Below are positions 1 through 17,200 of a stretch of 64,000 nt of DNA, piece by piece (the first letter of the stretch is position 1; every line of letters begins with the position of its first letter). This DNA is from Bacteroidales bacterium (GTDB lineage: Bacteria > Bacteroidota > Bacteroidia > Bacteroidales > GCA-2748055): assembly GCA_020636775.1 (NCBI GenBank), contig JACJXF010000002.1:144331-208330 (forward strand), given 5' to 3'. Made by a program: the position numbers and the translations under genes. The notes beneath the pieces are model-generated. The model saw only the letters and a list, made by a program, of their open reading frames with translations, was not told where the DNA came from and searched no databases.

Positions 1-269
1 TGCCATACCACATTAGTTCCTGTATCATCAAGCTTATTTTCAATAATAACAAGTCCCCCATCTTTGTCAATGGCAAGAATGTCGAGTCTTTCGTTGGTTT
101 CACTGAACCCTCGAAACTCTTTTTGAATGATCAACAGTTCTTCACCGAGCATTTCCGGATTCTTCGCAATCCATTCCTGTAAGTGTTCCCTTTCCCTAAT
201 GTGAAGTTCTTTGAACAGTCTCTGTTCAAGTTTAATGACGTTATTAGCGGCTTTATTGATTCGGTACAT
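1..269 (-). CDS. PD-(D/E)xK nuclease-like protein (NucS/DUF4268-like), N-terminal part; continues past the left edge
   Basis: Absent from the ORF track because it runs off the window. My own reverse-strand translation from ATG 269..267 gives MYRINKAANNVIKLEQRLFKELHIREREHLQEWIAKNPEMLGEELLIIQKEFRGFSETNERLDILAIDKDGGLVIIENKLDDTG... It has a D..D...ExK pattern (DILAID / IIENK). It starts 13 nt after the hsdS stop on the same strand. Confidence 0.6.
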   Translation of the reverse strand, partial: MYRINKAANNVIKLEQRLFKELHIREREHLQEWIAKNPEMLGEELLIIQKEFRGFSETNERLDILAIDKDGGLVIIENKLDDTGTNVVW

Positions 270-281
270 GATGCTATATTT

Positions 282-1505: not shown

Positions 1506-1508
1506 AAC

Positions 1509-3080
1509 TTAAAAAGGAGATGATATATTAAGCTCATTACAATATCCTGCGATTAACTTATCTGATTCTTTCATTTGCTTATCGAGTTCTACCAGTTCTT
1601 TTGCCAACTGGTTAATATCAATATTATCCTCTGCTTCAAAAGTATCCACATACCTGGGAATATTAAGGTTGTAATCATTTACAATAACATCCACCAGCTT
1701 TATTCGTTTGCTGTATTTATCTTCCTCCGTACGATTACGGTACGCTTCCACAATCTTACTTATGTCTTCATCCCTCAGATGATTTTGGGTTTTTATTTTC
1801 TCAAAATGTTGGCTGGCATCAATAAACAAAATATCCTCAGGATTCTCACGACATTTTTTAAAAACGAGTATACATGCAGGAATGCTCGTACCATAAAAGA
1901 TGTTAGCCGGTAATCCGATAACCGCATCCAAATAATTCCGATCTTCAATAAGATATTTGCGTATATGCTGTTCTGCTCCCCCGCGAAACAAAGCTCCATG
2001 AGGAAGTACAATTGCCATGGTTCCATTTTCCGTGAGCTGGTAAATCATATGCTGCACGAATGCAAAATCTGCTTTGCTGGAAGGTGCGAGCTTACCGTAC
2101 TGGCTGAACCGGTCATCGCTCATAAAGAGTGGACTTGCACTCCATTGTGCGGAGAACGGAGGATTGGCTACAATAGCTTCAAACCTTTTATCAATATGTT
2201 GGGGATGTTCCAGTGTATCTTCCTGCTTTAGATCGAACCTCCGATAATGCACGCCATGCAAGATCATATTCATTCGTGCCAGGTTATATGTGGTACGGTT
2301 TAATTCCTGTCCGTAAAAGTTGCTTACATCCTGAACTTCCTTTGCAACTCGTAGCAAAAGAGATCCCGATCCGCATGTGGGATCATAAACCGTTTTGAGT
2401 TTGCTTTTCCCAGTGGTAACTAATTTCGCCAACACTTTACTTACAGCCTGGGGGGTATAGAATTCACCTGCTTTTTTACCAGCACCGCTGGCGAACTGCC
2501 CTATAAGGTATTCATAAGCATCACCCAATACATCCGCATCAGCATTTTCGAGCTGGAAGTCAATTTTATCCAAGTGGGAGAGAACCTTTGCAATGAGTTC
2601 GTTTTTGGCGGATTCGGTTCTTCCGAGTTTGGTACTGGTAAGGTCGAGGTCTTCGAAAAGGTTGTCGAAATCGTCCTCGCTGGCGGTTCCCATAGTACTT
2701 TGCTCTATACTGATGAGGATTTTGGCAAGGTCTTCAAGTATAAAATTGTTTTCGCCTTCCTTATCACTATTCCCTCGCTTGGCAACTTCACTGAACAGTT
2801 CAGCAGGGCGAAGGAAGTATCCCAGGGTGGCAAGGGACTCTTCTTTTATCGCTTCTATGTATTGCTTCCCTTTTGAAGTATCCTCCTTTATATCGCGGTA
2901 TTTGATCCCGTCCTGCTTCAGGATAGAATCGGCATACCGGTACATTTTCTCAGAGAGGTACTTATAAAAGACAAAACCCAGGATGTAATCGCGAAACTCA
3001 TCGGCATTCATTTTACCACGGAGGGTGTTGGCAATGTTCCAGAGCTGTTGTTCGAGTTGTTTTTTTTGGTCTTCGGACAT
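1509..3080 (-). CDS. hsdM: Type I restriction-modification N6-adenine DNA methyltransferase HsdM
   Basis: 523 aa. It has the SAM motif DPTCGSGSLL, the catalytic NPPF motif (IVANPPFSAQW) and an HsdM N-terminal domain (QLWNIANTLRG). Confidence 0.93.
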   Translation of the reverse strand: MSEDQKKQLEQQLWNIANTLRGKMNADEFRDYILGFVFYKYLSEKMYRYADSILKQDGIKYRDIKEDTSKGKQYIEAIKEESLATLGYFLRPAELFSEVAKRGNSDKEGENNFILEDLAKILISIEQSTMGTASEDDFDNLFEDLDLTSTKLGRTESAKNELIAKVLSHLDKIDFQLENADADVLGDAYEYLIGQFASGAGKKAGEFYTPQAVSKVLAKLVTTGKSKLKTVYDPTCGSGSLLLRVAKEVQDVSNFYGQELNRTTYNLARMNMILHGVHYRRFDLKQEDTLEHPQHIDKRFEAIVANPPFSAQWSASPLFMSDDRFSQYGKLAPSSKADFAFVQHMIYQLTENGTMAIVLPHGALFRGGAEQHIRKYLIEDRNYLDAVIGLPANIFYGTSIPACILVFKKCRENPEDILFIDASQHFEKIKTQNHLRDEDISKIVEAYRNRTEEDKYSKRIKLVDVIVNDYNLNIPRYVDTFEAEDNIDINQLAKELVELDKQMKESDKLIAGYCNELNISSPF

Positions 3081-3267
3081 TTAGGTATAAGTTAATTCAC
3101 TATATCATGGGAAGTTAATAATAATAGCTAACCTTGAATAATCAATTTTATTACAAACGAAATCTACCCAATCTGGATTTCTCTATATTTTAAAAGTAGT
3201 ATTTTTTTTACGATAACCCAATGAGGGTCTATAATATTGATCGAATATTAATTATCTATATCCACCC

Positions 3268-4506
3268 TCATTTGAAAAAAGAATGATCGGCTAATAATAG
3301 TGCGTTTTCCTGTTCGCTTACTTTTATGTACTGCATAAATGCTTTTTCATTAGTATGACCTGTGATACGCATTATTGCTATCGTATGTATATCCGACGAA
3401 AATGCATTAGTAGCAAAGGATCTTCTGGCAATATGGGAAGAAATAAGTTCATATTTATGAAGGCTGCGTTTATAACTTATTCCTTTTCTATTTTCTCTTA
3501 TAATTACAGTTTCCTCAATACCTGCAAGCTTTCCGATATGCTTCAGGGTACGATTCATTGCTTGGTTTGAGTCAGGTTTAGGGATATTTCCTTCATATTT
3601 TTCTAGAATTTCTATTATGGTTTGGTTTAGAGGAATTACCACCCTTGAACTGGTTTTAATAGTTCTAAGTGATATAAATTGATTTTCTTCAATAGTTTGA
3701 AAATTTGCTTTTTTAATCTGACTAAAATCTGAAAAGCGTAAACCGGTAAAACAACCAATCAGGAACAAATCGCGAACCTTTTCCATTCCTGGTTTAGCTG
3801 AAAGATCCAGCTCTCTGATTCGCTTTATCTCGTCCAACCGTAAATAAATTGCATCTGCCTCCTGAAATACTACTTTGAATTTTCTTTGTTTATAATCCAG
3901 ATTAGAATTTAATCCTCTGAATTTAGCTTCATTTAAAACAGCTTTTAAATTCTTAATATGCAATCCGATTGTGTTTTCACGCATACCATATACTTTTTGC
4001 ATATGGTCAATAAAAGCATAATAAAAATCCATATTAATATCTTCAAACCTGAGTTTTGGTTTGAAACTTTTTAGAGCACCAAGGGTTCTTAAATAGGTTT
4101 TGACAGTACCAGCCGTCTTCGTGGATCTCGATTCCTTTATGAATTGCTCAAAGAAATCATAAAGAGATTTAGGCTCCTTGACCAGAATTTCCTTAACCCT
4201 TCTCTTTCTATTAAGATAATTTTCCAGTTTATCCTTTACTTCTTTGGATTTTAGGTTAGGTTCTGCAACCATTTGTCTATTGACTAAAGAAAGGATTGCG
4301 GATTCGAGAGCTGCGATAGATTTGTTTAATTCTCCGGAAGCTGGAACACCTTTCTTTATACGTAAATCCTTTGTCCAGCAATGGGAATCCAATCGAATTC
4401 CAAAGGAATAGTCAATACGCCAGTTTTTCGAATTCCGGATTACAAGTACAAGCAGACGTTTATTAGAAGTTTTTCTGCCAAGGAGTCGTTTTGTTATAGT
4501 TGCCAT
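3268..4506 (-). CDS. Tyrosine site-specific integrase (Bacteroidota phage-integrase type)
   Basis: 412 aa. The C-terminal catalytic signature is HIARRSFAT (HxxR) and GHTNEKAFMQYI (nucleophile Tyr). It lies immediately downstream of the 3' end of tRNA-Cys. Confidence 0.88.
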   Translation of the reverse strand: MATITKRLLGRKTSNKRLLVLVIRNSKNWRIDYSFGIRLDSHCWTKDLRIKKGVPASGELNKSIAALESAILSLVNRQMVAEPNLKSKEVKDKLENYLNRKRRVKEILVKEPKSLYDFFEQFIKESRSTKTAGTVKTYLRTLGALKSFKPKLRFEDINMDFYYAFIDHMQKVYGMRENTIGLHIKNLKAVLNEAKFRGLNSNLDYKQRKFKVVFQEADAIYLRLDEIKRIRELDLSAKPGMEKVRDLFLIGCFTGLRFSDFSQIKKANFQTIEENQFISLRTIKTSSRVVIPLNQTIIEILEKYEGNIPKPDSNQAMNRTLKHIGKLAGIEETVIIRENRKGISYKRSLHKYELISSHIARRSFATNAFSSDIHTIAIMRITGHTNEKAFMQYIKVSEQENALLLADHSFFK

Positions 4507-4565
4507 TGATTTTGGTTTTAACCCAAATCGAACAACTGTATTAACCGTGTAAATGTGTTGTTACC

Positions 4566-4606
4566 AAAAAAAGAAACCCCTGTATGTTTTGCAATACAGG
4601 GGTTTC
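4566..4606 (-). terminator. Rho-independent terminator downstream of tRNA-Cys
   Basis: A perfect 13-bp stem, GAAACCCCTGTAT (4573-4585) / ATACAGGGGTTTC (4594-4606), with an 8-nt loop. It is followed on the minus strand by a 7-U run (A-run 4566-4572). Confidence 0.8.
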
Positions 4607-4609
4607 AGG

Positions 4610-4680
4610 AGGTCGGTAGCGGACTCGAACCGCTGTAACTGGTTTTGCAGACCAGGGCCTAACCACTCGGCTAACCGACC
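4610..4680 (-). tRNA. tRNA-Cys (anticodon GCA)
   Basis: The reverse complement folds as a cloverleaf: acceptor GGTCGGT/ACCGACC, 3-bp D stem GCC/GGC, anticodon stem CTGGT/ACCAG with loop CTGCAAA (GCA), T arm AGCGG-TTCGAGT-CCGCT. No CCA is encoded. Confidence 0.9.
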
Positions 4681-4928
4681 CAGACTATTGTTCTAAATAA
4701 CTCTTATCGAGTCTAGCAGCTCTCAATAAACTAACTTGCTTTTTGAATTCAAAACTTCAAAGCTGTGCAAAGATAAGAATTTTCTTTTTTAATTCGAAAG
4801 AAGTAATACGATCTGAAAATAAGGGTAAAATTTGAATATTATTTCATCTGCTTAATCAAAAAATGGCAGACCTTTTGAAATTGATTATACAATTTGTATA
4901 TTGCAAAATGTAAATTACAATTTGCGCA

Positions 4929-6065
4929 ATGAATATAAAACCACAAACACCATTTCCGGCAACCGGATATTTTGGCCCCGAGTACTTTTGTGATAGGGAG
5001 GAAGAGCTGGCTCAACTGATCAGAAATATAAAAGGTGGCAATTCAACAACATTGATCGCCCTTAGAAGACTTGGTAAAACCGCGCTGATTCAGCATCTGT
5101 TTTATACTCTGCAATCAAAATACCTGACGATTTACCTCGATATACTGGCAACCGAATCCTTAAGTGAACTGTTAAATCAGCTCTCTACTTCTATTGCGAA
5201 TCAATATTCAGAAAAGAGCCCTGTTGGAAAAAAGTTATGGCAAACCATCAGGTCATTTCGACCGGTAGTTAGTTATGATGCGCTTAACGGATCACCACTG
5301 ATAAGTATTAAATCCAGTCCGGAGGAAAGTAAAAAGAGCATTGCCGAAATATTTTCCGTTCTTGAGAAGCATTCGAAACGGGTAGTAATTGCCATTGACG
5401 AATTTCAACAAATACTTGAGTATCCTGAAAAAGCCACAGATGCCTGGTTGAGATCTCTTATCCAGCAATTAAAAAATGTCAGCTTTATTTTTTCTGGCAG
5501 TCAGCAGCATATAATGAAGGAAATTTTTGCTAATCCTTCCCGGCCTTTTTACAGAAGTTCCCAATTTATTAAAATCGGAAAACTAAAAGAGGAAAGATAC
5601 AGAAGCTTTATTATTTCGAAATTTAAGGAACATTCGAAATCCATTTCAGAAGAAACAGTATCCGAAATACTAAAATGGACTGATTTACATACCTATTATG
5701 TTCAGCTCTTATGCAACCGTGTATTTCTGGCTTCCAAAAAAGTGATAACTACTGAGATATGGAAAGAAGAAGCTGCCAAAATTTTAAAAGAGCAGGAATT
5801 TGTTTTTTATGGTTACAGGGAAATGCTTACGCGTCCGCAATGGGATTTTCTCAAAGCGGTGGCTGTTGAGGGAGCTGTTTATCAGCCAACATCATCAGAT
5901 TTTATTTCCCGTTATGGGCTCGGGAATTCCGCCACGGTTCAGCGTTCATTGATGTCCCTTCAGAGGATGGAGCTGATATATAAGGAGAATGACCAGGATG
6001 GCAGAAATTATTACGGGATTTATGACCTTCTTTTCTCACGATGGGTGAGACGATTTTTTGAATAA
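4929..6065 (+). CDS. AAA+ ATPase (archaeal-ATPase/DUF234-type ATP-binding protein)
   Basis: 378 aa. Walker A is LRRLGKTALI and Walker B is VVIAIDEFQ. The C-terminal region looks like a winged helix, as in ATPase+DUF234 proteins. Confidence 0.7.
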   Translation: MNIKPQTPFPATGYFGPEYFCDREEELAQLIRNIKGGNSTTLIALRRLGKTALIQHLFYTLQSKYLTIYLDILATESLSELLNQLSTSIANQYSEKSPVGKKLWQTIRSFRPVVSYDALNGSPLISIKSSPEESKKSIAEIFSVLEKHSKRVVIAIDEFQQILEYPEKATDAWLRSLIQQLKNVSFIFSGSQQHIMKEIFANPSRPFYRSSQFIKIGKLKEERYRSFIISKFKEHSKSISEETVSEILKWTDLHTYYVQLLCNRVFLASKKVITTEIWKEEAAKILKEQEFVFYGYREMLTRPQWDFLKAVAVEGAVYQPTSSDFISRYGLGNSATVQRSLMSLQRMELIYKENDQDGRNYYGIYDLLFSRWVRRFFE

Positions 6066-6069
6066 CTTT

Positions 6070-6612
6070 CTATTGTCTGGTAAGTGTCATCTCAAAATTC
6101 TGAAACCAGCTTACCCCATCCCGGGAATATTCTCCCTTTTCATTCCATTTATCATCCTCTGTATGCTTTAGCGTATACCTGATCTTTCCCCATTCACCTT
6201 CCATCCCCCAGGAATAGCTTCCGTCGGGATTTGAACTGAAATCGCTGTCGATATAGTTACCTCCCCTGTATGCCCTCATAACAAATTTTGAGTTTTGCTG
6301 ATCATAAGTGAGAATCCCGAATGCCTCAAACTGTATTTTTGCCTCCTCTCCCGCATCCGGAATATCAAAACCTCTTCCTTCCATAGTGATAATAGTACCT
6401 TCCACACGACTTACTAAATGCTCCTTTTGCAGCAGTGTGGTTTTTAACTGGTCTCTTCCAATATACCAGGCCTCCCCCTGCCAGTCTCCTACCATCCAAT
6501 TAAAATTTTTCATTTTTTCAATTACTGCTGCAGGTCTGGGCTGAGCGGAAATAATGCTTCCAAAACTAAGTCCTGCCAAAATGACTATTATTACAAATCT
6601 TGTTTTTTTCAT
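6070..6612 (-). CDS. Secreted hypothetical protein (lipocalin/DUF1579-like beta protein)
   Basis: 180 aa with an N-terminal signal peptide (MKKTRFVIIVILAGLSFGSIISAQ). No catalytic motif was recognised. Confidence 0.5.
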   Translation of the reverse strand: MKKTRFVIIVILAGLSFGSIISAQPRPAAVIEKMKNFNWMVGDWQGEAWYIGRDQLKTTLLQKEHLVSRVEGTIITMEGRGFDIPDAGEEAKIQFEAFGILTYDQQNSKFVMRAYRGGNYIDSDFSSNPDGSYSWGMEGEWGKIRYTLKHTEDDKWNEKGEYSRDGVSWFQNFEMTLTRQ

Positions 6613-6658
6613 GCTTGTTTTTTAAATAATGATTTTTATTACATTCAGAATTCCCCCC

Positions 6659-6964
6659 TTAATCGGGAGAAGATCCTTTTTCCCCCGATAAATACCCTGA
6701 TAAAGCCTTCACATAGTTCTCAAAAGCCCTGGCTCCTTTTTTTGTGATGGAGCAGCTTGTCAGGGGATAGTTATTCCGGAAGCTTTTTTTTATATCAATG
6801 TATCCCTCTTCCTTAAGCCTGGATAATTGAATACTGAGATTTCCCTTGGTAGCACCGGTTTTTTCAAGAAGGTAGGTAAATTCAGCCGACTCCATTCCAA
6901 CCAGCAGTGACATGATTGCGAGCCGTAATTGTGAATGCAGGACCGGATCAAGTGGTTCAAACAT
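6659..6964 (-). CDS. Winged-helix transcriptional regulator (HTH_34/ArsR-MarR-like)
   Basis: 101 aa. The sequence LHSQLRLAIMSLL...FTYLLEKTGATKGNLSIQLSRLKEEGYI is typical of small wHTH regulators. It overlaps the upstream membrane-protein gene by 8 nt. Confidence 0.7.
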   Translation of the reverse strand: MFEPLDPVLHSQLRLAIMSLLVGMESAEFTYLLEKTGATKGNLSIQLSRLKEEGYIDIKKSFRNNYPLTSCSITKKGARAFENYVKALSGYLSGEKGSSPD

Positions 6965-7544
6965 AGCTTTCTTTTGTATAATTAAGTATTATTCCGGGAA
7001 TAAGATAACTGATTAATATAGCTGCAGCCACCAGTATCATCTGAATACCGTAATCCTGAAAACTGCAGATGATCGCAATTATCCAGGCAGCAATAGCACC
7101 TGCTATCATCCATTTAAATCTGAGCATCCCACCGGAAATAAAGGTAGTAAAGCCATACATCATAATTATCAGTGGATTTATCTGGGTTTCAGATAATAAT
7201 CGCTGAGATGCCAGGAAAGCAATAAAAATAATACTGATCACAAAACCTGTCCATAAATAAGTATTTACTCTGCCTACATAAGTCTTAACCTGAGGCTTTT
7301 TTTTCTTTCCTGATAGTACAAAAATATTCAGAACTATTGCCAGTGCACCTGCCACCGCCCAGCTTAACCAGTGCAGTTCACTGTTAAACACCGCATATAA
7401 AACGTACTGGGCTATGGCCGCTGCAAAAAATAATGAACCCCAGACGATATAATAAAATCCACCATTTCTGAAATTCTGTCTTGAGATATTAATCATCGAT
7501 TGTATCATTTCAAAACTTTCTTCCTGTGATAATTGCTTTTCCAT
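6957..7544 (-). CDS. Integral membrane protein (about 5 TM segments), co-transcribed with the wHTH regulator
   Basis: 195 aa with strongly hydrophobic segments. Its stop overlaps the start of the regulator gene. Confidence 0.55.
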   Translation of the reverse strand: MEKQLSQEESFEMIQSMINISRQNFRNGGFYYIVWGSLFFAAAIAQYVLYAVFNSELHWLSWAVAGALAIVLNIFVLSGKKKKPQVKTYVGRVNTYLWTGFVISIIFIAFLASQRLLSETQINPLIIMMYGFTTFISGGMLRFKWMIAGAIAAWIIAIICSFQDYGIQMILVAAAILISYLIPGIILNYTKESYV

Positions 7545-7733
7545 TTTAGTTTTTATTTATAATTAGGTTACAAATATAAAACATGTTTATAATATAAACC
7601 AAATATAAATGAAAATATTTTTCTCATGGGGTTTCTGAACATAATTGTCTGGTAATTTATATATAATGGATACGAGGGAAAATAAGTGATCACATATGCG
7701 AATTGAAAACTCGGGAAAAATGAAAATGCTTTT

Positions 7734-8405
7734 TCACTCAGGTAATCTGCCAATAAATCGATCCTTCTCTTCGGGACTTAGATTCTTAAATTCTTCCATA
7801 TAATGAAGTTCTTCTGTGGTTTTATGTTTATTAAGATTTACAAAGACAATCTTACCCTGTCCCTTTCCAAATTCTCCCCTGAAATCATAAAAACCTGCCA
7901 GTATGGTTAGTTTACCGGCCTTCACCAGTTCCCGGTACTTTTTATAGGCAATGCTCACCTGGTAGTCGAGATTTTTCTCAATAACATGTGAATGCAGACT
8001 ATCAAAATCGTCAGTTTCTCCAAACTCATGTATTATGGGCCTCAGAAAATCCAACTCATGTTTAATTCCCTCGCTCTCCTCATCAAATCCCTTTAAATAG
8101 GCCTTAATTGCTCCACAATCGGAGTGCCCCAGAAACATTAAAACCGGTGTCTTCAGATGGTAAATCCCATAATCAACCGAGCCCTCAGTTGATAATATCT
8201 GGTTTCCGATATTCTGAATGGAGAAAATTTTATTGGAAGTATCAGGCATCAGCGCCCGGAGCGGTACTCTCGAATCGGAACAGGTCACCAGGGTAATAAA
8301 AGGTTCCTGCTTCAGCTTAAAGCTTTCGAAGAACGCACGGTCGTGTGTGGAGGTAAACAAGGTGTTTCCTTCAACAATTCGGGAGATTATTTCGGGAACG
8401 GTCAT
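7734..8405 (-). CDS. Beta-class carbonic anhydrase
   Basis: It has the zinc-ligand motifs CSDSRVP and GHSDCGA. The ORF in the track runs to 8519, but the internal start MTVPEIISRIVEGN (ATG 8405) gives a typical ~223 aa beta-CA. Confidence 0.8.
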   Translation of the reverse strand: MTVPEIISRIVEGNTLFTSTHDRAFFESFKLKQEPFITLVTCSDSRVPLRALMPDTSNKIFSIQNIGNQILSTEGSVDYGIYHLKTPVLMFLGHSDCGAIKAYLKGFDEESEGIKHELDFLRPIIHEFGETDDFDSLHSHVIEKNLDYQVSIAYKKYRELVKAGKLTILAGFYDFRGEFGKGQGKIVFVNLNKHKTTEELHYMEEFKNLSPEEKDRFIGRLPE

Positions 8406-8738
8406 GGGGAGGAGGTTTATTTTACTCTTCAGTCGGTAAATATACTCAGATAAAGTTATGGAATTCTGCGGAATGTGAATATATGGTTCCGGAAAACCCC
8501 CCAGACAGCCTGTGCTCATCCCTCGTCTTCAGAAGAACGCCAGATCACTTTTATTCGGTTTTTTTTACTAAATTCCGTTTTCAAATAACAATAACAGGAT
8601 TAATCGACTTTTTTGAGTGTTATTATGTAATATTTCCAAACATATATTGTGAAATTTGAATGTTTTGGCTAATAGATAAAATGAGATAGGAGAGGTGTGT
8701 GTGGATGATATCAGGCATATAAAATAGTTACCAACCAT

Positions 8739-9665
8739 ATGATGAGAGCAATTAGTTACATATTAGCAATATTTTTATTGAGTTCTTGTGCTTCGATAAT
8801 GAATCAGCCAACAACAAAAATTAAAATATACTCAGATAATTCTACTGAAATAGTTGTCGGTAATAACACTTATAAAATTGAACATGAAGAAAAGGTTCAT
8901 GTTAAAAGACAGAAAGATTCTCTGATATTAATTGCAAAACAAGATTCCTTGACTAAAACGTTTATTTTGAAACCCAAAAATTCTTTTAATTATTATGCAA
9001 ATGTACTTTCATATGGACTTGGATTTATTTGGGATTCAAAATCGGAGAAACGATACACTTATCAAGGAAACTTATACATTGATTTTAGTTCACAAAACTT
9101 GAGGAAATTTAAACCAAATAAAAAAGGACAAATAGATATTCAATTTTCACTTCCTCATATTAATTCTCTCTACTTACGACCTCTAAATGAATCTTCAAAA
9201 GCAAATATTGGATTTTGGGGCATAACAGGTGGACTTGAATATTATTATAAAGACAACAAATCATTAGGATTATCAATTAGTGCAGTCTCTGACTTTTTTG
9301 TTCCATTTCCAGCAGCAGTTGACATTAGTGGTGAATATGAATTAATGAGTTCAACGTATATAAGCCTGACAGATAATTTGAAAATAAGGGACTTTAGCAT
9401 TGGTTATGGGATAAATTATTCAAAAAATAATTGGGACTTAAGATATTATGATGCGTTTGACCCTGCACCTCCATCAAGAGAACCTGTTTTTAAATCATCA
9501 CAATCATTTGGCTTGACATTAAATAGTTATTATAGATTAGGAAAGCATTTCAATATCGGCGTAATTTATAGACCGACTTTTTTAAGAGTCAAACCAAGTA
9601 CTGAGTTTGTATATGAACATTTGATAAGTGTTGACTTTGCTTGGAAATGGAAAATAAAGAAATGA
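8739..9665 (+). CDS. Hypothetical lipoprotein (cassette 1)
   Basis: 308 aa with a lipoprotein signal (ILAIFLLSSC) and an aromatic-rich, beta-strand-like composition. The ATG lies 2 nt after the GTTACCAACC core. Confidence 0.6.
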   Translation: MMRAISYILAIFLLSSCASIMNQPTTKIKIYSDNSTEIVVGNNTYKIEHEEKVHVKRQKDSLILIAKQDSLTKTFILKPKNSFNYYANVLSYGLGFIWDSKSEKRYTYQGNLYIDFSSQNLRKFKPNKKGQIDIQFSLPHINSLYLRPLNESSKANIGFWGITGGLEYYYKDNKSLGLSISAVSDFFVPFPAAVDISGEYELMSSTYISLTDNLKIRDFSIGYGINYSKNNWDLRYYDAFDPAPPSREPVFKSSQSFGLTLNSYYRLGKHFNIGVIYRPTFLRVKPSTEFVYEHLISVDFAWKWKIKK

Positions 9666-9674
9666 ATTAAATAC

Positions 9675-9807
9675 GGTTGGTAACAATGTATATACAAAAT
9701 AGGCGTAATAGTAGTAATTTCAAGGGCTGTAACCCGCTCAAAAATTCTAACGGTTTGATAAGTTTGAAGCCCGCAATCGCCTACTTTGCATATACTAACC
9801 GTTGTAT
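9675..9807 (+). repeat. attC-like recombination site 1
   Basis: It starts GGTTGGTAAC and ends AACC-GTTGTAT. L-box-like arms GTATATACAAAATAGGCG (9688-9705) and CGCCTACTTTGCATATAC (9778-9795) pair with 2 mismatches. It is about 87% identical to site 2 over the same length, by my hand alignment. Confidence 0.75.
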
Positions 9808-9873
9808 TCAAGTGTGTAGACATTCCTGCAATTAATTTTATATCCAAATCACATAAAATATCAATTTAGTGTT

Positions 9874-9881
9874 TATATTTG
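9874..9881 (+). promoter_or_regulatory. Candidate Bacteroidota -7 promoter box (TATATTTG) for cassette 2
   Basis: An exact TAnnTTTG match 28 nt upstream of ATG 9910. I saw no clean -33 TTTG at the expected spacing. Confidence 0.35.
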
Positions 9882-9909
9882 TAAAATATTTACATAAATA
9901 GATGATAAA

Positions 9910-11169
9910 ATGGTATTAGAGATTCGCCTTAGTAATTTTTTTTCAATAAAAGATGAAGTTGTATTAGACTTCAGGGCAGCCAATATAAAATCAGCAAATG
10001 CAAAAGCATTAAAGAATAATTTATTTGAACAAGATAAAACAGGTATATTAAAAACACTGATTATATATGGAGCCAACGCTTCTGGGAAAAGTAATATAAT
10101 AAAAGCTATACGTTTTTGTAATGCAATGGTTTTTGAGTCACATAATCATAATGAAAATACTATTTATAATTTTATTCCTTTTAAGTTTGAAAACTACAAC
10201 AATAAACCAAGTACATACTTTATACGATTTGTTTTAGGTGAAATTGAGTATGAATATTCTTTCTCATTGACACGTACTTCAATAATTACTGAAAGTTTAT
10301 ATTATTATCCAAAAGGTCGGATTAAGGAGATATTTACACGTGATGAGCGAAAAGGAAAAAGTAAGAAAGAAAAATACACATTTACGGATGTGATTAAAAG
10401 ACCATTTGATGTTGCTGAAAATACATCTGATAAAACATTATACATTTCCCGAGCAAGTCAAATGGATAGAGACTTAGCAAAAGAAATTTTTAATTATTTC
10501 AACAAAACTTTTATTTTAAATTATTTAGGTTTTGGAATTTCTGCGATAGAAAACATCACAAATCTTAATAAACAACAATTAATAGATGCTTTAAAAATAG
10601 CGGATAGCGATATTGAAGAAGTAAAAATTAAAGTGCTGAAAAAATCGGGTAAAAATATTCATGCCGATTTGACAAGTATGACTTTAAAAGTGGAAGATGT
10701 TGTGCAAGACCATTTGCAGATTAAAACATATCATAAAACAAATCCGGGTGTAGCTTTTGATTTTCTCACAGAGGAGTCACAGGGAACTATAAAACTTTTT
10801 TTTATAATGCTTACTCTTTTAGATGTTATCAAGAATAACAAAGTATTACTAATTGATGAAATTGAAGAAAGTCTTCACCCTAAGATTATTGAATATATTT
10901 TTAATCTGTTTAGAGCTGGAGAAAAAGCTCAACTACTTTGCACAACACATAACACACAATTTCTTGACCTTAAAAAATTTCGTAAAGACCAGATTTGTTT
11001 TGTCAATAAAAGTATGACTGGTGCTACTGACTTATATTCTCTTTATGATTATAGTGACTTCCGAGATACTATGGATTTGGAGAAAGCATATATGCAAGGA
11101 CGTTTCGATGCAATTCCAATAGTTAATGATTCTTTTGACGAGCTAAAAAGTTTATTGCATGAAAAGTAA
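9910..11169 (+). CDS. AAA_15/AAA_21-type ABC-like ATPase (OLD/AriA/AbiLi/RloA-like), cassette 2
   Basis: 419 aa. Walker A is GANASGKSN, Walker B is VLLIDEIEESLHP, and the H-loop is CTTHN. The N-terminus (LSNFFSIKDEVVLDF) is typical of this defence-ATPase family. Confidence 0.8.
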   Translation: MVLEIRLSNFFSIKDEVVLDFRAANIKSANAKALKNNLFEQDKTGILKTLIIYGANASGKSNIIKAIRFCNAMVFESHNHNENTIYNFIPFKFENYNNKPSTYFIRFVLGEIEYEYSFSLTRTSIITESLYYYPKGRIKEIFTRDERKGKSKKEKYTFTDVIKRPFDVAENTSDKTLYISRASQMDRDLAKEIFNYFNKTFILNYLGFGISAIENITNLNKQQLIDALKIADSDIEEVKIKVLKKSGKNIHADLTSMTLKVEDVVQDHLQIKTYHKTNPGVAFDFLTEESQGTIKLFFIMLTLLDVIKNNKVLLIDEIEESLHPKIIEYIFNLFRAGEKAQLLCTTHNTQFLDLKKFRKDQICFVNKSMTGATDLYSLYDYSDFRDTMDLEKAYMQGRFDAIPIVNDSFDELKSLLHEK

Positions 11170-11722
11170 ACGACAGGCATCAAAAGGAAAAAAAATTAAT
11201 CCGCATTTTTGGGTTTTCTGTGAAGGAGAAACAGAAGAAGCATATGTCAGGTTTTTACGCTCTGAATATAGGTTGCCAGTAGAAATAATACCCAAAGTTA
11301 CTGGTTCTAGTATAAATGAACGTTTTATTAATTCATATAAAAAAGGAAAACCTATTCACGAGAAAGATAAAGATTTTCTAATATATGATGCGGATGTTCC
11401 AGAGGTTCTTGAGAAACTTAAAAAAATTAATAAAGCTATTCTTTTGGTTTCTAACCCTACAATTGAGCTGTGGTTTTTGCTTCATTATAAAAATCAGACA
11501 GCGGCATTGTCAGGAGATGATTGTGTTAGAGAATTGAGTAATCGAAATAGAAACAATTACATGAAGGGAATAATTGATAATCCTTTAAAAGTAAAATTAA
11601 AGGAAAAGTGTAGTGATGCATGTAACCGTTCTAAACAACTTGAATTATTAGAAAATCCTTCGACTAATTTGTATGTTTTCATTGAATCACTTGAAGAAGT
11701 AAAAAAAGAAAAAATGCAATAA
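11159..11722 (+). CDS. RloB-like (TOPRIM-related) protein, partner of the ATPase, cassette 2
   Basis: 187 aa. It has FWVFCEGETEEAYV (a conserved Glu) and LIYDADVP (DxD-like). It overlaps the ATPase gene by 11 nt. Confidence 0.7.
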   Translation: MKSKRQASKGKKINPHFWVFCEGETEEAYVRFLRSEYRLPVEIIPKVTGSSINERFINSYKKGKPIHEKDKDFLIYDADVPEVLEKLKKINKAILLVSNPTIELWFLLHYKNQTAALSGDDCVRELSNRNRNNYMKGIIDNPLKVKLKEKCSDACNRSKQLELLENPSTNLYVFIESLEEVKKEKMQ

Positions 11723-11726
11723 ACAC

Positions 11727-11860
11727 CTGTATACAACAATGTATATACAAAATAGGCGTGATATTAGTAAATTCAACGGTTGTAGCCCGCTTCAACTTCT
11801 CAACGGTTTGATAATTTTGAAGCCCGCAATCGCCTACTTTGCATATACCAAACGTTAGCG
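11727..11860 (+). repeat. attC-like recombination site 2
   Basis: It starts CTGTATACAAC and ends AAAC-GTTAGCG. Its inverted arms are the same as in site 1. It begins 5 nt after the RloB-like stop. Confidence 0.75.
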
Positions 11861-11897
11861 GTCATATAACTTCACATCTCAATTTAACTATTAATTT

Positions 11898-11928
11898 TTT
11901 GCATAGAATTAATTAAGTGCTAACTTTG
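11898..11928 (+). promoter_or_regulatory. Bacteroidota sigma-A type promoter for the mazEF cassette
   Basis: The -33 TTTG (11898-11901), a 19-nt spacer and the -7 TAACTTTG (11921-11928) match the TTTG-N19-21-TAnnTTTG consensus exactly. The ATG is at 11948. Confidence 0.6.
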
Positions 11929-11947
11929 TAATTACAAAACAAAGATT

Positions 11948-12193
11948 ATGGAACTCTCAATTGTTCAAATAGGAAATTCAAAAGGTATAAGGTTAAGTAA
12001 AACCATCCTTGAGAAATATGATATCAAAGATACTGTCGAAGTTATCCTTGAAAAAGGCTTTATTGTGTTAAAGCCAAAACCCTCTCCCAGGAAAGGCTGG
12101 GATAAAGCCTTTAAAAAGATGCACGAAAAAGGTGATGACAATCTTTTAATGAACGATGTTTTTGAAGACGAAAATCTTGAAGAATGGAGCTAA
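11948..12193 (+). CDS. mazE: AbrB/MazE/SpoVT-family antitoxin (cassette 3)
   Basis: 81 aa. The N-terminus IVQIGNSKGIRLSKTILEKY is a swapped-hairpin AbrB-type fold motif. It overlaps the toxin gene by 10 nt. Confidence 0.8.
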   Translation: MELSIVQIGNSKGIRLSKTILEKYDIKDTVEVILEKGFIVLKPKPSPRKGWDKAFKKMHEKGDDNLLMNDVFEDENLEEWS

Positions 12194-12507
12194 ATCAATA
12201 TTCCGTTGTATTAGTTAATCTTGATCCTACGTTAGGAAGTGAGATTAAAAAGACAAGACCTTGCGTTATAATCTCTCCGGACGAAATGAACCATTATTTA
12301 AGAACGATAGTTATTGCTCCAATGACAAGTAAATCAAAAGATTATCCAACAAGAGTTAAGATTAAACAGAATAATAAGGAGGGCTGGATTGTACTTGACC
12401 AGATTCGCACCATAGATAAGCAAAGAATAATAAAAGTTTTTGAGAATTTGAATAAGAAAGAAATTGAAAAAGTAAAGCTTGTTATTAAAGAAACTTTTGT
12501 CGATTAA
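12184..12507 (+). CDS. mazF: PemK/MazF-family endoribonuclease toxin (cassette 3)
   Basis: 107 aa. The sequence VVLVNLDPTLGSEIKKTRPCVIISPD...IVIAPMTS...LDQIRTIDKQR is the classic MazF/PemK pattern. Confidence 0.85.
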   Translation: MELNQYSVVLVNLDPTLGSEIKKTRPCVIISPDEMNHYLRTIVIAPMTSKSKDYPTRVKIKQNNKEGWIVLDQIRTIDKQRIIKVFENLNKKEIEKVKLVIKETFVD

Positions 12508-12512
12508 AAATA

Positions 12513-12643
12513 CGCCACTAACAGCGTGTAAATGTCATTGCCACTTTTCTCTTCCCTACTGGCTTTAATTCAAAATTATTACATAACTTTATTTAAAGAT
12601 GTTCGTCTATGTGGCAACGCCACTTACACGCGGAACGTTGCAA
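12513..12643 (+). repeat. attC-like recombination site 3 (sequence family differs from sites 1/2)
   Basis: It starts CGCCACTAAC and ends GGAAC-GTTGCAA. Arms CGTGTAAATGTCATTGCCAC (12525-12544) and GTGGCAACGCCACTTACACG (12611-12630) form an imperfect inverted repeat (GTGGCAA and TTACACG blocks perfect). It starts 6 nt after the mazF stop. Confidence 0.7.
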
Positions 12644-12890
12644 GCAATTTTGACCCGTCCTAATAATGACCTTACATTATAATTAAAAATCATTATGTGC
12701 CTGATACACGCAAAATTGAAAAATTCCAGCCCCTGAAAGACACTTAAACTATTAGCCCAAAGCGCTTATTTTAAGGGCGTTACACATAATAAACTTTGCA
12801 AAGGCCTGTCGGGAAACCGCTTCAAAATGCCCGAAGTTTCAATCCCTAAACGTCCCCCGTTCCTCTCGCCTCACCCCTCGCAACTCCTTT

Positions 12891-13847
12891 TCACCCAATC
12901 CCATTCCATACCATCAGCCAAAACGGAATCGCAAACAAACACACAATATAGCTCACGAAAATAATGCCACCTACTTTCCCGATATCACCTCCATAGGTTC
13001 TTACCATCAGGATGTGTGCGGTGGCGGGTGCGGTGGCCGACTGGAGAATTAATACCTGGGCGAGCAGCGGATAGCTCTGACCGGTTTTTAAAAAGTATAA
13101 GGCAGCTACAGTAGCAGCAGGAAGAATGATGAATTTCACAAAAACAATACGAAAGGTATCCCAGAAAGGAGGAATCTTTCGCATCGACATGGCCAGGGTG
13201 GAGCCCAGGACAAAGGTGGCGACAGGCACCGTGGCATTCCCCAGCATGCGACTTGCATCCACTAAAATTTCGGGAACAAAGCGCTTTCCTCCCGTGAGAA
13301 CAAGAAGAATACCCAGCAAACTGGCGATAAACGGAGGAGTCACTATTTTCTTAAACAGACTGCCGTTTTTACCATCCTTTGTTATCAGAATTTTTCCAAC
13401 CGACCACATAATTGGATTCAGTCCCATGAGCACTAGAAAGCAAATCAGTGAAAACTCAGGAAACTGATCCTTAAAAGCAAATTCGCCAATGGGCAGGGCC
13501 AGGTAAACAGCATTCTGCATTCCGGACAGGGGAAAGAGAGATTTCTTTTCTTTAATGTTCCTGGCAAATAAAAGACCGGAGAAAATAAGTCCCCCAAATG
13601 CCAGCGCCATGGCTACCAGAGGGGCGTACCACCAATACGTCTGTGCAGCGGGATCAAAACTCTTCATGATGGTGGCAAAAATCTGAAGAGGAAGAAAAAC
13701 CCTGACGACCAGGACCGACAATCCATCAATAAACTCCTCAGTAAACACCTTTTTATAACTCATATATCCGGCCAGGGATGCAATAAGAAACACTTTGAAT
13801 ATTGCCTGGAAGATGCTGAAAAAGGTCCCTGTGAAGAAGCTTTCCAT
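12891..13847 (-). CDS. AEC-family (auxin efflux carrier-type) membrane transporter
   Basis: A polytopic membrane protein. I place the start at MESFFTGTFFSIF (ATG 13847). The longer track ORF (to 13994) only adds a His/Val/Leu low-complexity translation of the 9-bp repeat array. Confidence 0.75.
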   Translation of the reverse strand: MESFFTGTFFSIFQAIFKVFLIASLAGYMSYKKVFTEEFIDGLSVLVVRVFLPLQIFATIMKSFDPAAQTYWWYAPLVAMALAFGGLIFSGLLFARNIKEKKSLFPLSGMQNAVYLALPIGEFAFKDQFPEFSLICFLVLMGLNPIMWSVGKILITKDGKNGSLFKKIVTPPFIASLLGILLVLTGGKRFVPEILVDASRMLGNATVPVATFVLGSTLAMSMRKIPPFWDTFRIVFVKFIILPAATVAALYFLKTGQSYPLLAQVLILQSATAPATAHILMVRTYGGDIGKVGGIIFVSYIVCLFAIPFWLMVWNGIG

Positions 13848-13903
13848 GATAGGATTGTGGGTGTTGTTGAAGGGAGCAAAAGTAGGGAAATTTTTTGGAA
13901 CAT

Positions 13904-14112
13904 GGTGGGCGTGAAGGGCGTGAAGGACGTGAAGGACGTGAAGGGCGTAAAGGACGTAACGACCGTAACAACTGTGATGGACGTGATGGACCAACCGTAA
14001 CGACCGTAACGACCGTTACGTCCGTAACGACTGTGATGGTAACAACCGTAACGACCGTAACGACCGTAACGTCCGTTACGTCCGTGATGGTAACGACCCC
14101 AACTACCGTGAC
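13904..14112. repeat. About 23 tandem units of a 9-bp repeat (GTGAAGGRC / CGTAACGAC / GTGATGG variants)
   Basis: Read directly: ggtgggcgt gaagggcgt gaaggacgt gaaggacgt gaagggcgt aaaggacgt aacgaccgt ... gtaacgacc gtaacgacc gtaacgtcc gttacgtcc. It lies between the divergent AEC transporter and ccsBA genes. Confidence 0.9.
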
Positions 14113-14217
14113 TTTTTTCATTCCCAATAAATAAATACCTTTGAGTCTTAAATAAAAGTTGCCATCTTTGCGTTTCGTAATCTGACTACAATTCAATCTT
14201 AAAACTGAATCTTCCAA

Positions 14218-17200
14218 ATGAAAAAATATATCAACTTTCTTTTCTCGATGCGGTTTACCGCGATACTATTTGTCGTGTTTGGACTTTCAATTGCAACAGC
14301 GACATTTATTGAAAATGACTTCGGAACCGACTCGGCCAGGGCAGTAATTTATAATACCAAATGGTTTGAGCTGGTTCTTTTTCTGGGAATGATCAATCTG
14401 ATCGTTAATATTTTCAGGGCGAAACTGTATAAAAAGGAAAAACTTCCCATGTTTATTTTCCATATCGCTTTTGTGGTAATCATTCTGGGTGCCGGTATTA
14501 CCCGCTATATCGGATTTGAAGGCTCTATTGGTATTCGCGAGGGAGCATCCTCCAATACCGTGGTTTCTGATAAGGCATATATTCAGATCGAAGCAAAGCA
14601 GGGGGAGAATGTTTATAAACAAGAGGATTATGTTCTCTTTTCCCCCTTAAGGAACTCCCGGTATTCTTCCAGGCTTGGCTCGGGCGACAAGAAGATTGAA
14701 GTAAAGCTTGCTGAATTTATACCGAATGCTTCTGAAACACTGGCTCCTGCAGGTGACGGGGAGCAAGGCTTTACCATGCAGGAAATGGTGATCTCAGGCG
14801 ATAACGGTCGCGAAACAGTTATAATGAAGGAAGGGGATGAGAGAAGATTTAAATCCATCTGGATTAGTTTTAGCGGATCTCAGCACCAGGACGGTGTACG
14901 CATCACAAATAATGGTGGTCGTGCCATGATCTCTGCCTCCTTCGATTTTACGGTAATGAGCATGGCCGATCAGTCGACCGTGACCTTTAAAGCCGACAGT
15001 ATCTATCCTTTTCTTCCCATGCACCTCTATAACTTCAACGGGGTGATGGTGGTACCCCAGTCATTTATGGAGAATGCCATTATCAGGCCCATGAAAAATC
15101 CGGGAGCTGAAAAAAATATGTTTATGGATGCTCTTGTATTCAATGTAAGCTCCCAGGGACAGAGCAAACAACTCACGGTTTGGGGCAAGAAAGGAGTAAT
15201 AGGGGAAGCCGCAAGCACAGAAATAGCAGGTTCCAGAGTGGATATTTCATACGGATCCATGGCTGTCAGCATTCCTTTTTCCTTGCGACTTGAGGACTTT
15301 TTCCTTGAGCGTTATCCTGGATCAAATTCCCCATCCTGGTTTGAAAGTAAGGTAACTCTTTTTGATCCTGTGAAAAAGATCTCTGAGCCTCACCGCATTT
15401 TTATGAATAACGTTCTTATTTATCAGGGATACCGTTTCTACCAGTCCTCCTACGATAACGACGAACACGGAACCATACTCTCCGTGAATAAGGATTTCTG
15501 GGGAACCTGGGTTAGTTATATTGGTTACCTGCTGATGGGACTGGGAATGGCCATGACCCTTTTCAACCCTAACAGCAGATTCACCCTGCTTTCACGTAAG
15601 ATTAAAGAAGTTCGCGAGAGTCGCAAATTACTGACGGCATTACTATTCGGACTCTTCATGATGGCCGCTCCTGCCAATGCGCAGATGAGCAGCCTGCCTC
15701 ATTTTATTGATCCGGCACACGCCAAATCCTTTGGTGAGCTTCTGGTTCAGGATCACGGGGGAAGGATAGAGCCGATCAACACGATGAGTTCAGACATTGT
15801 AAGAAAAGTTGCCCGGAAAACGGAAATCAATGGATTAAATCCTGATCAGGTTATTCTCGGAATGCTCCAGGATCCCGGATACTGGCAAACGGTAAGAATG
15901 ATCAGGGTTTCAAATGACCAGCTTGCCCGCGAGTTAAATCTGGATTCGAAATATGCTGCCTTCCAGGATTTTCTGAATAACGAGGGCTATGTTTTACAAT
16001 CGGCTGTTGAACAGGCTTACAGAAAGAAGCCTGCGTACAGAAGCAAGTACGATAATGAGCTGATGAAGGTGGATGAGAGAGTAAACATATGCTACATGAT
16101 CTATTCGCAGGGACTTTTAAAAGTATTACCCAAAAAAGATGATGTTACCGGCAAATGGTATACTCCGGTTGAGGCCGGTCAGGCATTTACCTCTGATGAC
16201 ACAGTTTTCACACGGACCATTTTCCCTGTTTACCTTCAGTCGCTTGATCAGGCTGTTCATTCCGGTGATTATACACAAGCCAATGAATATCTTACGTATC
16301 TGAAATCCTATCAGCAGAAATATGGTGCCAGTCTCCTTCCGTCTGAAAATACCAGAAAGCTGGAGCTATACTACAATAAACTTGGTATTTTTGGCCGTCT
16401 GTCGGGAATTTACGGACTAATTGGCTTTGTTTTGCTCATGCTTCATTTTGTTCAGATATTTATGACCCGACTGAAGCTGGATAAGATCATTACAGTAGCC
16501 AGCTGGCTGGTAATCCTTACATTTATTGCACACACTGCAGGTCTGGCCATGCGCTGGTATATTTCCGGTCATGCTCCATGGAGTAACGGATATGAGGCGC
16601 TGGTTTATATTTCCTGGGCAACCATTCTGGCCGGACTTATCTTTTCCCGGAAATCAAAAATTACACTGGCTGCCACCGCAATACTTGCATACCTTATTCT
16701 TTTTGTGGCTCACCTCAGCTGGATGGATCCGGAAATCACCAATCTGGTTCCGGTGCTTAAATCCTACTGGCTCGTAATCCACGTGGCCATTATCACTGCC
16801 AGCTATGGCTTCCTTGCCCTGGGTGCTGTTATGGCTGCCATCAACCTGTTCCTCATGATTCTTAAATCGGAAAAGAGCATGAAGCGTGTGGATCTGGTTA
16901 TTCAGGAACTGAGCTATATTATTGAAATGACGCTTATCGTAGGGCTTTTCATGGTTTCAATAGGAACTTTTCTTGGTGGCGTCTGGGCCAATGAATCCTG
17001 GGGTCGCTACTGGGGATGGGATGCGAAGGAAACCTGGGCACTGGTAACGGTTATTGTCTACAGCTTTATTGCCCATATGAGGATGGTTCCCGGCCTGAAG
17101 GATATTTATAAATTCAACCTGGCGGCTTTGGTGGGCTTCAGTTCGGTAATCATGACCTACTTCGGGGTAAATTATTATTTATCGGGATTGCATTCCTATG

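Follow-up and report, generated by a model that had tools for sequence, protein, structure and literature searches.

An integron-type gene cassette array with a cross-phylum site family and no adjacent integron integrase in a Bacteroidales chromosome

Introduction

Integrons are the textbook system for the capture of genes as cassettes, and nearly all knowledge of them comes from Proteobacteria. A 64,000-nucleotide stretch of a Bacteroidales chromosome (hereafter the window; GenBank assembly GCA_020636775.1, contig JACJXF010000002.1, positions 144,331–208,330 of the forward strand) raises the question of whether three consecutive plus-strand units, each closed by a hairpin element, form an array of such cassettes and, if so, which enzyme would move them. 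The window holds only part of the source genome; it also encodes a SusC/SusD pair and a type IX secretion system (T9SS) sorting domain, traits of a Bacteroidota host. Complete genomes of Bacteroidetes have been reported to contain only isolated intI genes (In0) and one complete integron, in Salinibacter (PMC9024848); the other integron literature that we searched mentions Bacteroidota only in general lists.

A first-pass annotation, made from the nucleotide sequence of the window, had read the three units as an integron-type cassette array with no IntI beside it. We find this reading largely right in kind, with corrections on the homogeneity of the sites, on extrahelical bases and on IntI. We consider it likely that window positions 8728–12637 are an integron-type array of three independently mobile cassettes served by a recombinase acting in trans, for which a tyrosine recombinase linked to IS91-type elements would be the best candidate.

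Results

Sites and split core

The three cassettes measure 1074, 2053 and 783 bp (8728–9801, 9802–11854 and 11855–12637, all on the plus strand) and lie between a beta-carbonic-anhydrase gene (7734–8405, minus strand) and an AEC-family transporter gene (12891–13847, minus strand). Their GC content is 29–32% (30.5%, 29.3% and 32.2% in order), as compared with 38% in the left flank and 46% in the right. All elements of the layout proposed in the first-pass annotation are present: in each unit a hairpin element of 122–131 nt with AAC...GTT ends follows a few bases past the stop codon. The attC-type site 1 occupies 9671–9803 on the plus strand, with an R'' extension at 9671–9684, AAC at 9682 and GTT at 9801–9803; its 18-bp stem arms, placed by folding and by the alignment of related sites, are 9688–9705 and 9779–9796. 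Site 2 occupies 11724–11856 on the same strand (AAC at 11735, GTT at 11854–11856), and site 3, also plus, occupies 12509–12639 (AAC at 12520, arms 12524–12544 and 12611–12631, GTT at 12637–12639). As had been described, sites 1 and 2 are equal in length, each 122 nt from AAC to GTT, and about 87% identical (106/122); this identity starts at AAC and stops at GTT.

A covariance model (R1) built from 99 relatives of sites 1 and 2 in other genomes scores 148 bits at site 1 and 150 bits at site 2. It also recovers site 3, which had been detected as an inverted repeat, at 12511–12643, oriented as sites 1 and 2 are and matched over the full length of the model (21.9 bits, E = 0.008 in the 64-kb window), which bears out the view of site 3 as the same architecture in a different sequence. 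The other R1 matches in the window are the reverse strands of sites 1 and 2 (E = 0.04–0.06) and two short low-GC matches (E > 2); beyond the three sites, no further copies of the element occur in it. An Rfam scan at gathering and permissive thresholds returned nothing at the sites, the IntegronFinder attC model not being part of Rfam.

The single strands of all three elements fold, with the bottom strand favored over the top in each (−18.9 vs. −15.9 kcal/mol for site 1, −22.8 vs. −18.8 for site 2, and −20.3 vs. −13.1 for site 3). Against shuffled sequences, the bottom strand of site 2 stands out most clearly (z = −3.6, 0/200 shuffles), with weaker values for site 1 (z = −2.6, 1/200) and site 3 (z = −2.6, 4/200). 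The expected R and L boxes are recognizable, the 18-bp stem being set off from the R box by unpaired spacers of 3 nt and 5 nt; the stem of site 3 carries a 1 × 1 mismatch.

The decisive claim of the first-pass annotation was that the bases at the start of every unit are complementary to the inverse core of the element downstream of that same unit, and for cassettes 1 and 2 this holds. The start of cassette 1 at 8727 (GTTACCAACCATAT) matches the reverse complement of 9671–9684 at 13/14 positions, and the start of cassette 2 at 9801 (GTTGTATTCAAGTG) matches that of 11724–11737 at 12/14, a longer match than the 7/7 first noted. Counting only the bases beyond GTT, agreement is 10/11 for cassette 1 (P = 5e-5) and 9/11 for cassette 2 (P = 3e-4), with all GTT/AAC pairs in the window as background; pairings with the wrong partner score 0–6/11. 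For cassette 3, the 7/8 match reported over an 8-mer is reproduced, but the ungapped comparison beyond GTT gives 5/11 (P ~0.14), which is not significant alone. With one gap, GTTAGCGGTCATAT fits GTTAGTGG-CGTAT over 13 positions with two mismatches, one of which falls at the usual A/G position of the site family described below. Among 36 consecutive pairs in independent arrays, the start of a cassette matches its own R'' at a mean of 6.6/11, as against 2.9/11 in a same-site-flank control, and 15 of the 36 reach at least 9/11. Pairs that do not follow the rule mostly enclose long stretches, probably with other kinds of site inside them.

Polymorphism between genomes

The exact MazE protein of cassette 3 is encoded on contig JACJXG010000018.1 of assembly GCA_020636705.1 (locus L126), labelled Bacteroidales. 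This locus is 99.7% identical to window positions 1–8730 and 98.9% identical to 11841–15010, and in it mazEF follow directly after the carbonic-anhydrase gene, as the sole cassette, with the junction AAAATAGTT/AGCCGTCATATAAC. The 3127 bp that the window has in addition correspond precisely to cassettes 1 and 2 (1074 and 2053 bp), with GTT at both bounds. Metagenome contig L001 has the same junction, and cassettes 1 and 2 are likewise absent from it. Comparison of related strains had been named as a check on the reading, with breakpoints expected at GTT, and the L126 comparison supports gain or loss cassette by cassette.

The left junction is a single GTT (8727–8729, plus strand; …GGCATATAAAATAG/TT, the slash marking the boundary) in the two genomes, either attI-like or a secondary insertion point; in L126 and L001 it directly precedes the start of cassette 3. 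Positions 8713–8729 (GCATATAAAATAGTT) resemble the L'-spacer-R' end of the site family (GCATATACTAAACGTT), a resemblance that may reflect a decayed half-site or chance. A decayed attC at this point was considered and set aside, as the R1 model gives no detection there.

Two metagenome contigs carrying cassette 2 (L002, 1–1958, and L003, 1–1880, corresponding to window positions 9776–11761) break at or near a cassette boundary and inside site 2, and one such contig begins at 9804, directly past GTT. Contig breaks at the sites are expected if the sites recur in the assembly graph of a community.

The site family across phyla

Relatives of sites 1 and 2 were collected with a 20-mer of the 3' arm against contigs of one genome per species (at least 120 matches) and with a 24-mer of the 5' arm in metagenomes (at least 120 stretches), giving at least 240 loci with sites 90–96% identical. 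Hosts among the matches listed are Bacteroidales/Marinilabiliales, Flavobacteriales, Cytophagales, Saprospirales and Ignavibacteria, and further Kapabacteria, Calditrichia, Chloroherpeton and Neomarinimicrobiota, with a few short contigs in odd bins. The family is common to the Fibrobacterota–Chlorobiota–Bacteroidota (FCB) group and is not species-specific. Copies in other phyla are 90–96% identical to site 2. Conservation covers the full element, AAC to GTT, and gives way to variable flanks. Site 2 is 94–96% identical to copies in other orders and phyla versus 87% to site 1, and is nearer to copies in Calditrichia or Flavobacteriales than to its own neighbor; the proposed likeness to the homogeneous sites of sedentary chromosomal integrons therefore does not hold.

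A profile search recovered 178 copies, with 2–5 copies, always on one strand, in 38 of 122 sequences (the window and 121 loci). An open reading frame (ORF) on the same strand precedes 104 of 121 copies, its stop codon mostly 5–40 nt upstream and most commonly 10–19 nt. Several genomes hold more than one separate array (locus pairs L037/L042, L034/L073 and L039/L076). The first-pass annotation had allowed that the element might be a dispersed repeat unrelated to gene boundaries; the preceding same-strand ORFs argue against this. At the ends of the element, Y (97%) and R (93%) stand next to AAC and GTT, which are themselves invariant in the family alignment by construction. Beyond them, the family reads SMY-AAC and GTT-RKS, in only partial agreement with the classical RYYYAAC/GTTRRRY consensus.

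On the bottom strand, 95% of cells in the 18-bp stem are paired and 12 pairs show compensatory change, a covariation reached by none of 500 shuffles. Two G·T wobbles are kept in 92 and 99 of the 99 sequences, even where the stem sequence of a subtype has changed. On the top strand these positions are A·C mismatches, which favors folding of the bottom strand: the latter is the more stable one in 89 of 99 sites, by a mean margin of 2 kcal/mol. Position 11 of the extended R box repeatedly shows an A/G asymmetry of a similar sort. The strand asymmetry is thus carried by the two conserved wobbles and not, as had been anticipated, by extrahelical bases; one extra base is present in some diverged subtypes and in the short IS-linked site described below.

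Hybrid sites are seen at four loci (L011, L087, L026 and L102), where the 5' arm of one subtype (GTATAAAAATAATAGCCG) is combined with a main-type 3' arm (CGCCTACTTTGCATATAC). As the arms come from different subtypes, the stem pairs poorly; exchange at GTT would not generate such sites.

Matches to TAnnTTTG, the Bacteroidota −7 promoter consensus, lie in the center of sites 1 and 2 (9759–9766, TAAGTTTG, and 11812–11819, TAATTTTG), oriented toward the next cassette. The motif is retained across the family as TAAGTTTG or TAGGTTTG. It could be an outward promoter; if so, this would help explain the sequence conservation of the center.

Integrases and IS91-linked elements

The sole tyrosine recombinase in the window (3268–4506) lies beside a tRNA-Cys gene and a type I restriction–modification system and belongs to a separate island; it combines Phage_int_SAM_5 and Phage_integrase domains, a pair typical of Bacteroidota integrative-element integrases. 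No IntI-type integrase was identified in the 64 kb, in agreement with the earlier statement that none lies next to the array. An IntI1 query, validated at 799 bits against the integron-integrase model, was used to screen all ORFs of 120 genome loci (~0.8 Mb) and 120 metagenome loci (0.53 Mb); across the ~240 family loci (~1.3 Mb) it likewise identified no IntI-type protein. The screen returned 17 matches, and all of those closely examined (4 + 5 aligned) are without the IntI-specific segment, fall below the TIGR02249 cut-off and match TIGR02249 in two pieces. The missing IntI is probably not a local accident.

Several of these recombinases, in at least seven places across five genome loci (L010, L080, L089, L103 and L112), lie ~70 nt from a small GC hairpin, which leads into TTTA-GTTCAAC and next an attC-type site. 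The gene next to the recombinase (PF13495 + PF00589) encodes an IS91-type Y2 transposase (Zn_Tnp_IS91 + Y2_Tnp). The recombinase family is very large: over 7600 relatives match at E < 1e-30, most of them on ~2.5-kb contigs. In long contigs, pairs of recombinase and Y2 genes form tandem units of 2463 bp with a 62-nt attC-like site between them, the R box of which is formed by the element terminal repeats GTTGAACTAAAC and GTTTAGTTCAAC. Head-to-tail units of this kind are seen in L128 (5538–10023) and L129 (8001–16630), with a 297-amino acid (aa) tyrosine recombinase, a 380-aa Y2 transposase and the 62-nt hairpin between units. In L103 an IS91-linked unit stands between two attC-type sites, like any cassette, and in L130 one such unit appears to separate a cassette ORF from its site. 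Since these units lie at the GTT of attC-type sites and in tandem, the IS91-linked elements use the same GTT as the cassettes and behave as cassettes. The recombinase beside attC-type sites was also considered as part of an integron platform (integrase plus attI), a candidate rejected because its neighbor is the IS91 Y2 transposase and the units are tandem 2.46-kb elements.

The only integrase-like genes seen within arrays are these IS91-linked tyrosine recombinases, which may also move the cargo cassettes in trans. To our knowledge, no function has been assigned to the recombinase of IS91-type elements. We found no description of the site family, or of IS91-linked recombinases as attC-associated elements, in a literature search that was incomplete and is thus weak evidence of novelty.

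Discussion

Proposed mechanism

What the sequences show directly is the anatomy of the array, the split core, a polymorphism that follows cassette boundaries, a conserved structure and an asymmetry between strands; from these we propose the following course of events. Each cassette would consist of an ORF or operon and its 3' attC-type site, and the array would have been inserted at one GTT between the carbonic-anhydrase and AEC-transporter genes. When single-stranded, the bottom strand would form a long hairpin comprising an R box with AAC/GTT ends, an unpaired spacer of 3 versus 5 nt and a stem of 18–21 bp. A tyrosine recombinase could then swap strands at the GTT of two such sites, so that cassettes exit as circles and re-enter at another GTT; circles that leave and return in this way would each start with the complement of their own inverse core. 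The recombinase would be encoded away from the array and act in trans, the best candidate being a tyrosine recombinase of the Xer/IntI group, without the IntI insertion, that is carried by IS91-family elements. In this scheme, the single-stranded substrate, the exact cleavage point in GTT and, most of all, the enzyme itself are inferred, and the enzyme is the main uncertainty.

Several points weigh against this reading. The 64-kb window contains no IS91-linked recombinase of the candidate type, and the left junction is neither a recognizable attI nor an attC, with no site found upstream by R1. No extrahelical (bulged) bases are present in the stem of sites 1 and 2 or of the main family, as judged from the 99-sequence alignment. 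A classical IntI encoded outside the 64 kb in view would be compatible with the data, and the HUH transposase of IS91 elements could yield the same junctions, as excision from nick to nick would leave the same signature of circular permutation.

Alternative explanations

The most serious alternative, although an unlikely one, is that the locus is an ordinary cluster of attC sites lacking an integron integrase (CALIN), served by a classical IntI with its specific domain that is encoded elsewhere in the genome or was supplied by past donors, the sites being a divergent attC family. The anatomy and the split-core rule do match classical attC sites, and In0 elements in Bacteroidetes and complete integrons in Chlorobi and Ignavibacteriae have been reported (PMC9024848). 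However, if arrays usually lie beside intI, many family loci should include it, and the ~0.8 Mb of genome and 0.53 Mb of metagenome sequence centered on family sites contain no IntI-type protein. The separate arrays found within single genomes also speak against it. Classical IntI moreover needs extrahelical bases for the choice of strand, and these the main family does not have.

Somewhat less probable still is movement of the cassettes by the HUH (Y2) transposase of the IS91 elements itself, in a peel-and-paste or rolling-circle manner: the enzyme would nick at one hairpin and stop at the next, and single-stranded circles would re-insert. A Y2_Tnp gene always stands beside the recombinase in array-embedded elements, the element ends (TTTA-GTTC-AAC) contain GTTC, the reported IS91 target tetranucleotide, and only one strand of the sites folds well, as expected of a single-strand enzyme. 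Cargo cassettes, however, read GTTA or GTTG (93%) and not GTTC past the crossover, and are without IS91 ends. The arrangement of R box, spacer and L box, with two halves resembling binding sites, is that of a tyrosine-recombinase core site.

It is very improbable that the elements are terminator-like or repetitive extragenic palindromic (REP)-like repeats at gene ends and that the L126 difference is a deletion by homologous or illegitimate recombination, for although the hairpins lie close behind stop codons and both the left junction and the end of site 2 read GCATATA...GTT, the shared stretch at the breakpoints is only ~16 nt with mismatches, and a deletion leaves unexplained the complement to the own site (seen both in the window and in 15 or more independent pairs), the identity ending exactly at AAC and GTT, and the conserved wobbles. 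Readings as miniature inverted-repeat transposable elements (MITEs), IS200/IS605 elements or pdif modules were also rejected, since each unit has a single hairpin in direct orientation, lacks a target duplication and encodes no transposase.

A trans-acting, IS91-linked tyrosine recombinase remains the best candidate for this array. A wider proposal, which we hold more tentatively and put at somewhat under an even chance, is that the FCB group has its own IntI-free cassette system, with a conserved 122-nt site, an IS91-linked recombinase or HUH transposase that is itself a cassette at the same GTT, and no fixed intI-attI platform.

Comparison with known systems

The label that suits the locus best is that of an integron-type, CALIN-like array whose recombinase is probably not a classical one. 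The CALIN class comprises attC clusters that have no integron integrase (Cury et al. 2016; Neron et al. 2022, PMC9024848); in the window, three sites fall inside 3 kb and the 64 kb contain no IntI, the sites having been called with our own model and not with IntegronFinder. As in integron cassettes and CALIN, there is one 3' hairpin site per cassette, in the same orientation and with the ends ...YAAC and GTTR.... Imperfect inverted arms, an unpaired spacer, a favored bottom strand, a GTT crossover and the lack of an adjacent integrase are further shared features, as is the cargo: a toxin–antitoxin pair, a defense system and a protein of unknown function. Unlike in classical attC sites, the R box is ~11–14 bp long and often has an A/G mismatch at position 11, the uninterrupted 18-bp stem of the main family carries two G·T wobbles in place of extrahelical bases, and the whole 122-nt site, center included, is 90–96% conserved across phyla. 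The adjacent intI with its additional domain that defines a complete integron is missing from the window and from the ~1.3 Mb screened.

The long (~120–130 nt) conserved sites in chromosomal arrays recall sedentary chromosomal integrons such as the Vibrio cholerae superintegron with its Vibrio cholerae repeats (VCR), as do the toxin–antitoxin and anti-phage cassettes; anti-phage and defense cargo has been described in such integrons (bioRxiv 10.1101/2024.07.02.601686). With three cassettes, sites that are not lineage-specific and no intI, the locus nevertheless falls outside this class. The arrays of the family are short (3 cassettes here, 2–5 per 8 kb elsewhere) and lie scattered, several to a genome, with no recognizable intI-attI platform.

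ISfinder lists IS91-family members in which the Y2 HUH transposase gene is preceded by one for a tyrosine recombinase, and the array-embedded elements carry exactly this gene pair. They differ from the described members, for which we found no such account, in being bounded by attC-type sites, in forming cassette-like tandems and in inserting at the cassette GTT; none of them lies in the window. Specific insertion into attC-type sites is shared with IS1111-attC elements and group IIC-attC introns, but the enzymes there are an IS110-type transposase or an intron-encoded reverse transcriptase, and those elements are passengers of IntI-driven integrons, whereas no integrase-like gene was seen in the present arrays other than that of the inserted IS91-linked element. 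The pdif (Xer) modules of Acinetobacter plasmids are likewise small, include toxin–antitoxin modules without a dedicated adjacent integrase, and are bounded by sites for Xer-type tyrosine recombinases. Their sites are 28-bp, double-stranded and in inverted pairs, unlike the 122–131-nt hairpins in direct orientation, with a signature of circular permutation, described here.

What the locus adds is a set of cassettes that follow integron rules and are polymorphic between near-identical genomes in a Bacteroidales chromosome. A site nearly unchanged across several phyla points to a common pool of cassettes that serves much of the FCB group and would move defense and toxin–antitoxin genes. The interest lies in this phylum-spanning conserved site, in the strand mark made of wobble pairs and in the lack of IntI more than in an integron in Bacteroidota itself. 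If the recombinase is not IntI, the integron principle would have arisen or persisted with an enzyme and a strand mark of another kind, and the recombinase of IS91-type elements would gain a function. With the family model, genomes and metagenomes could be searched for further arrays of this kind.

Cassette cargo

The cargo had been described as a defense pair, a toxin–antitoxin module and an orphan lipoprotein, and Pfam and PADLOC comparisons confirm AbiL, MazEF and a lipoprotein without a family. Cassette 1 holds a predicted lipoprotein ORF of 308 aa (8739–9665, plus strand; MMRAISYILAIFLLSSC...), its start codon 12 nt past the junction GTT, with no family match in Pfam or PADLOC. Cassette 2 encodes, on the plus strand, an AbiLi-like ATPase of 419 aa (9910–11169; PADLOC AbiLi 1.3e-80, Pfam AAA_21 1.1e-40) and an AbiLii-like/RloB protein of 187 aa (11159–11722; PADLOC AbiLii 9.6e-20, Pfam RloB 2.2e-21). 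Cassette 3 encodes, also on the plus strand, a MazE-like antitoxin of 81 aa (11948–12193; Pfam MazE_antitoxin 2.7e-4, under the gathering score) and a MazF/PemK-like toxin of 107 aa (12184–12507; Pfam PemK_toxin 5.5e-31), the two ORFs overlapping by 10 nt.

A scan for the TAnnTTTG pattern gave a predicted −7 promoter match 29 nt upstream of the abiLi start (9874–9881, plus strand, TATATTTG) and another 20 nt upstream of mazE (11921–11928, plus strand, TAACTTTG). It returned no match between 8400 and 8739, upstream of the first cassette.

Surrounding locus

Homologs of the carbonic anhydrase in related species were used to seek an ancestral empty site; none was recovered, and synteny is gone in one second species. 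Exact-protein look-ups with the long carbonic-anhydrase ORF and with the AEC transporter gave no match; with a shorter start, the carbonic anhydrase matched metagenome contig L001. In a species with an 84% identical carbonic anhydrase (L135, 5230–6001; also L136–L139), the intergenic region between carbonic anhydrase and transporter carries a PDDEXK_3 gene with inverted repeats of the CTCGCAAAGCCGCAAAG type on either side, and an attC-type site is missing from it. This position seems liable to receive insertions of different kinds.

The island that contains the tyrosine recombinase of the window spans 282–4680, beside the tRNA-Cys gene (4608–4680, minus strand), and includes HsdM (1509–3080) and HsdS (282–1505) as well as the integrase. 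The sister genome (L126) has this island too, with HsdR and a DUF4268 gene on its far side. Positions 13753–14217, between the transporter gene and a ResB-like gene, are rich in repeats, with ORFs on both strands that encode VTVVT... and GREGRE... runs.

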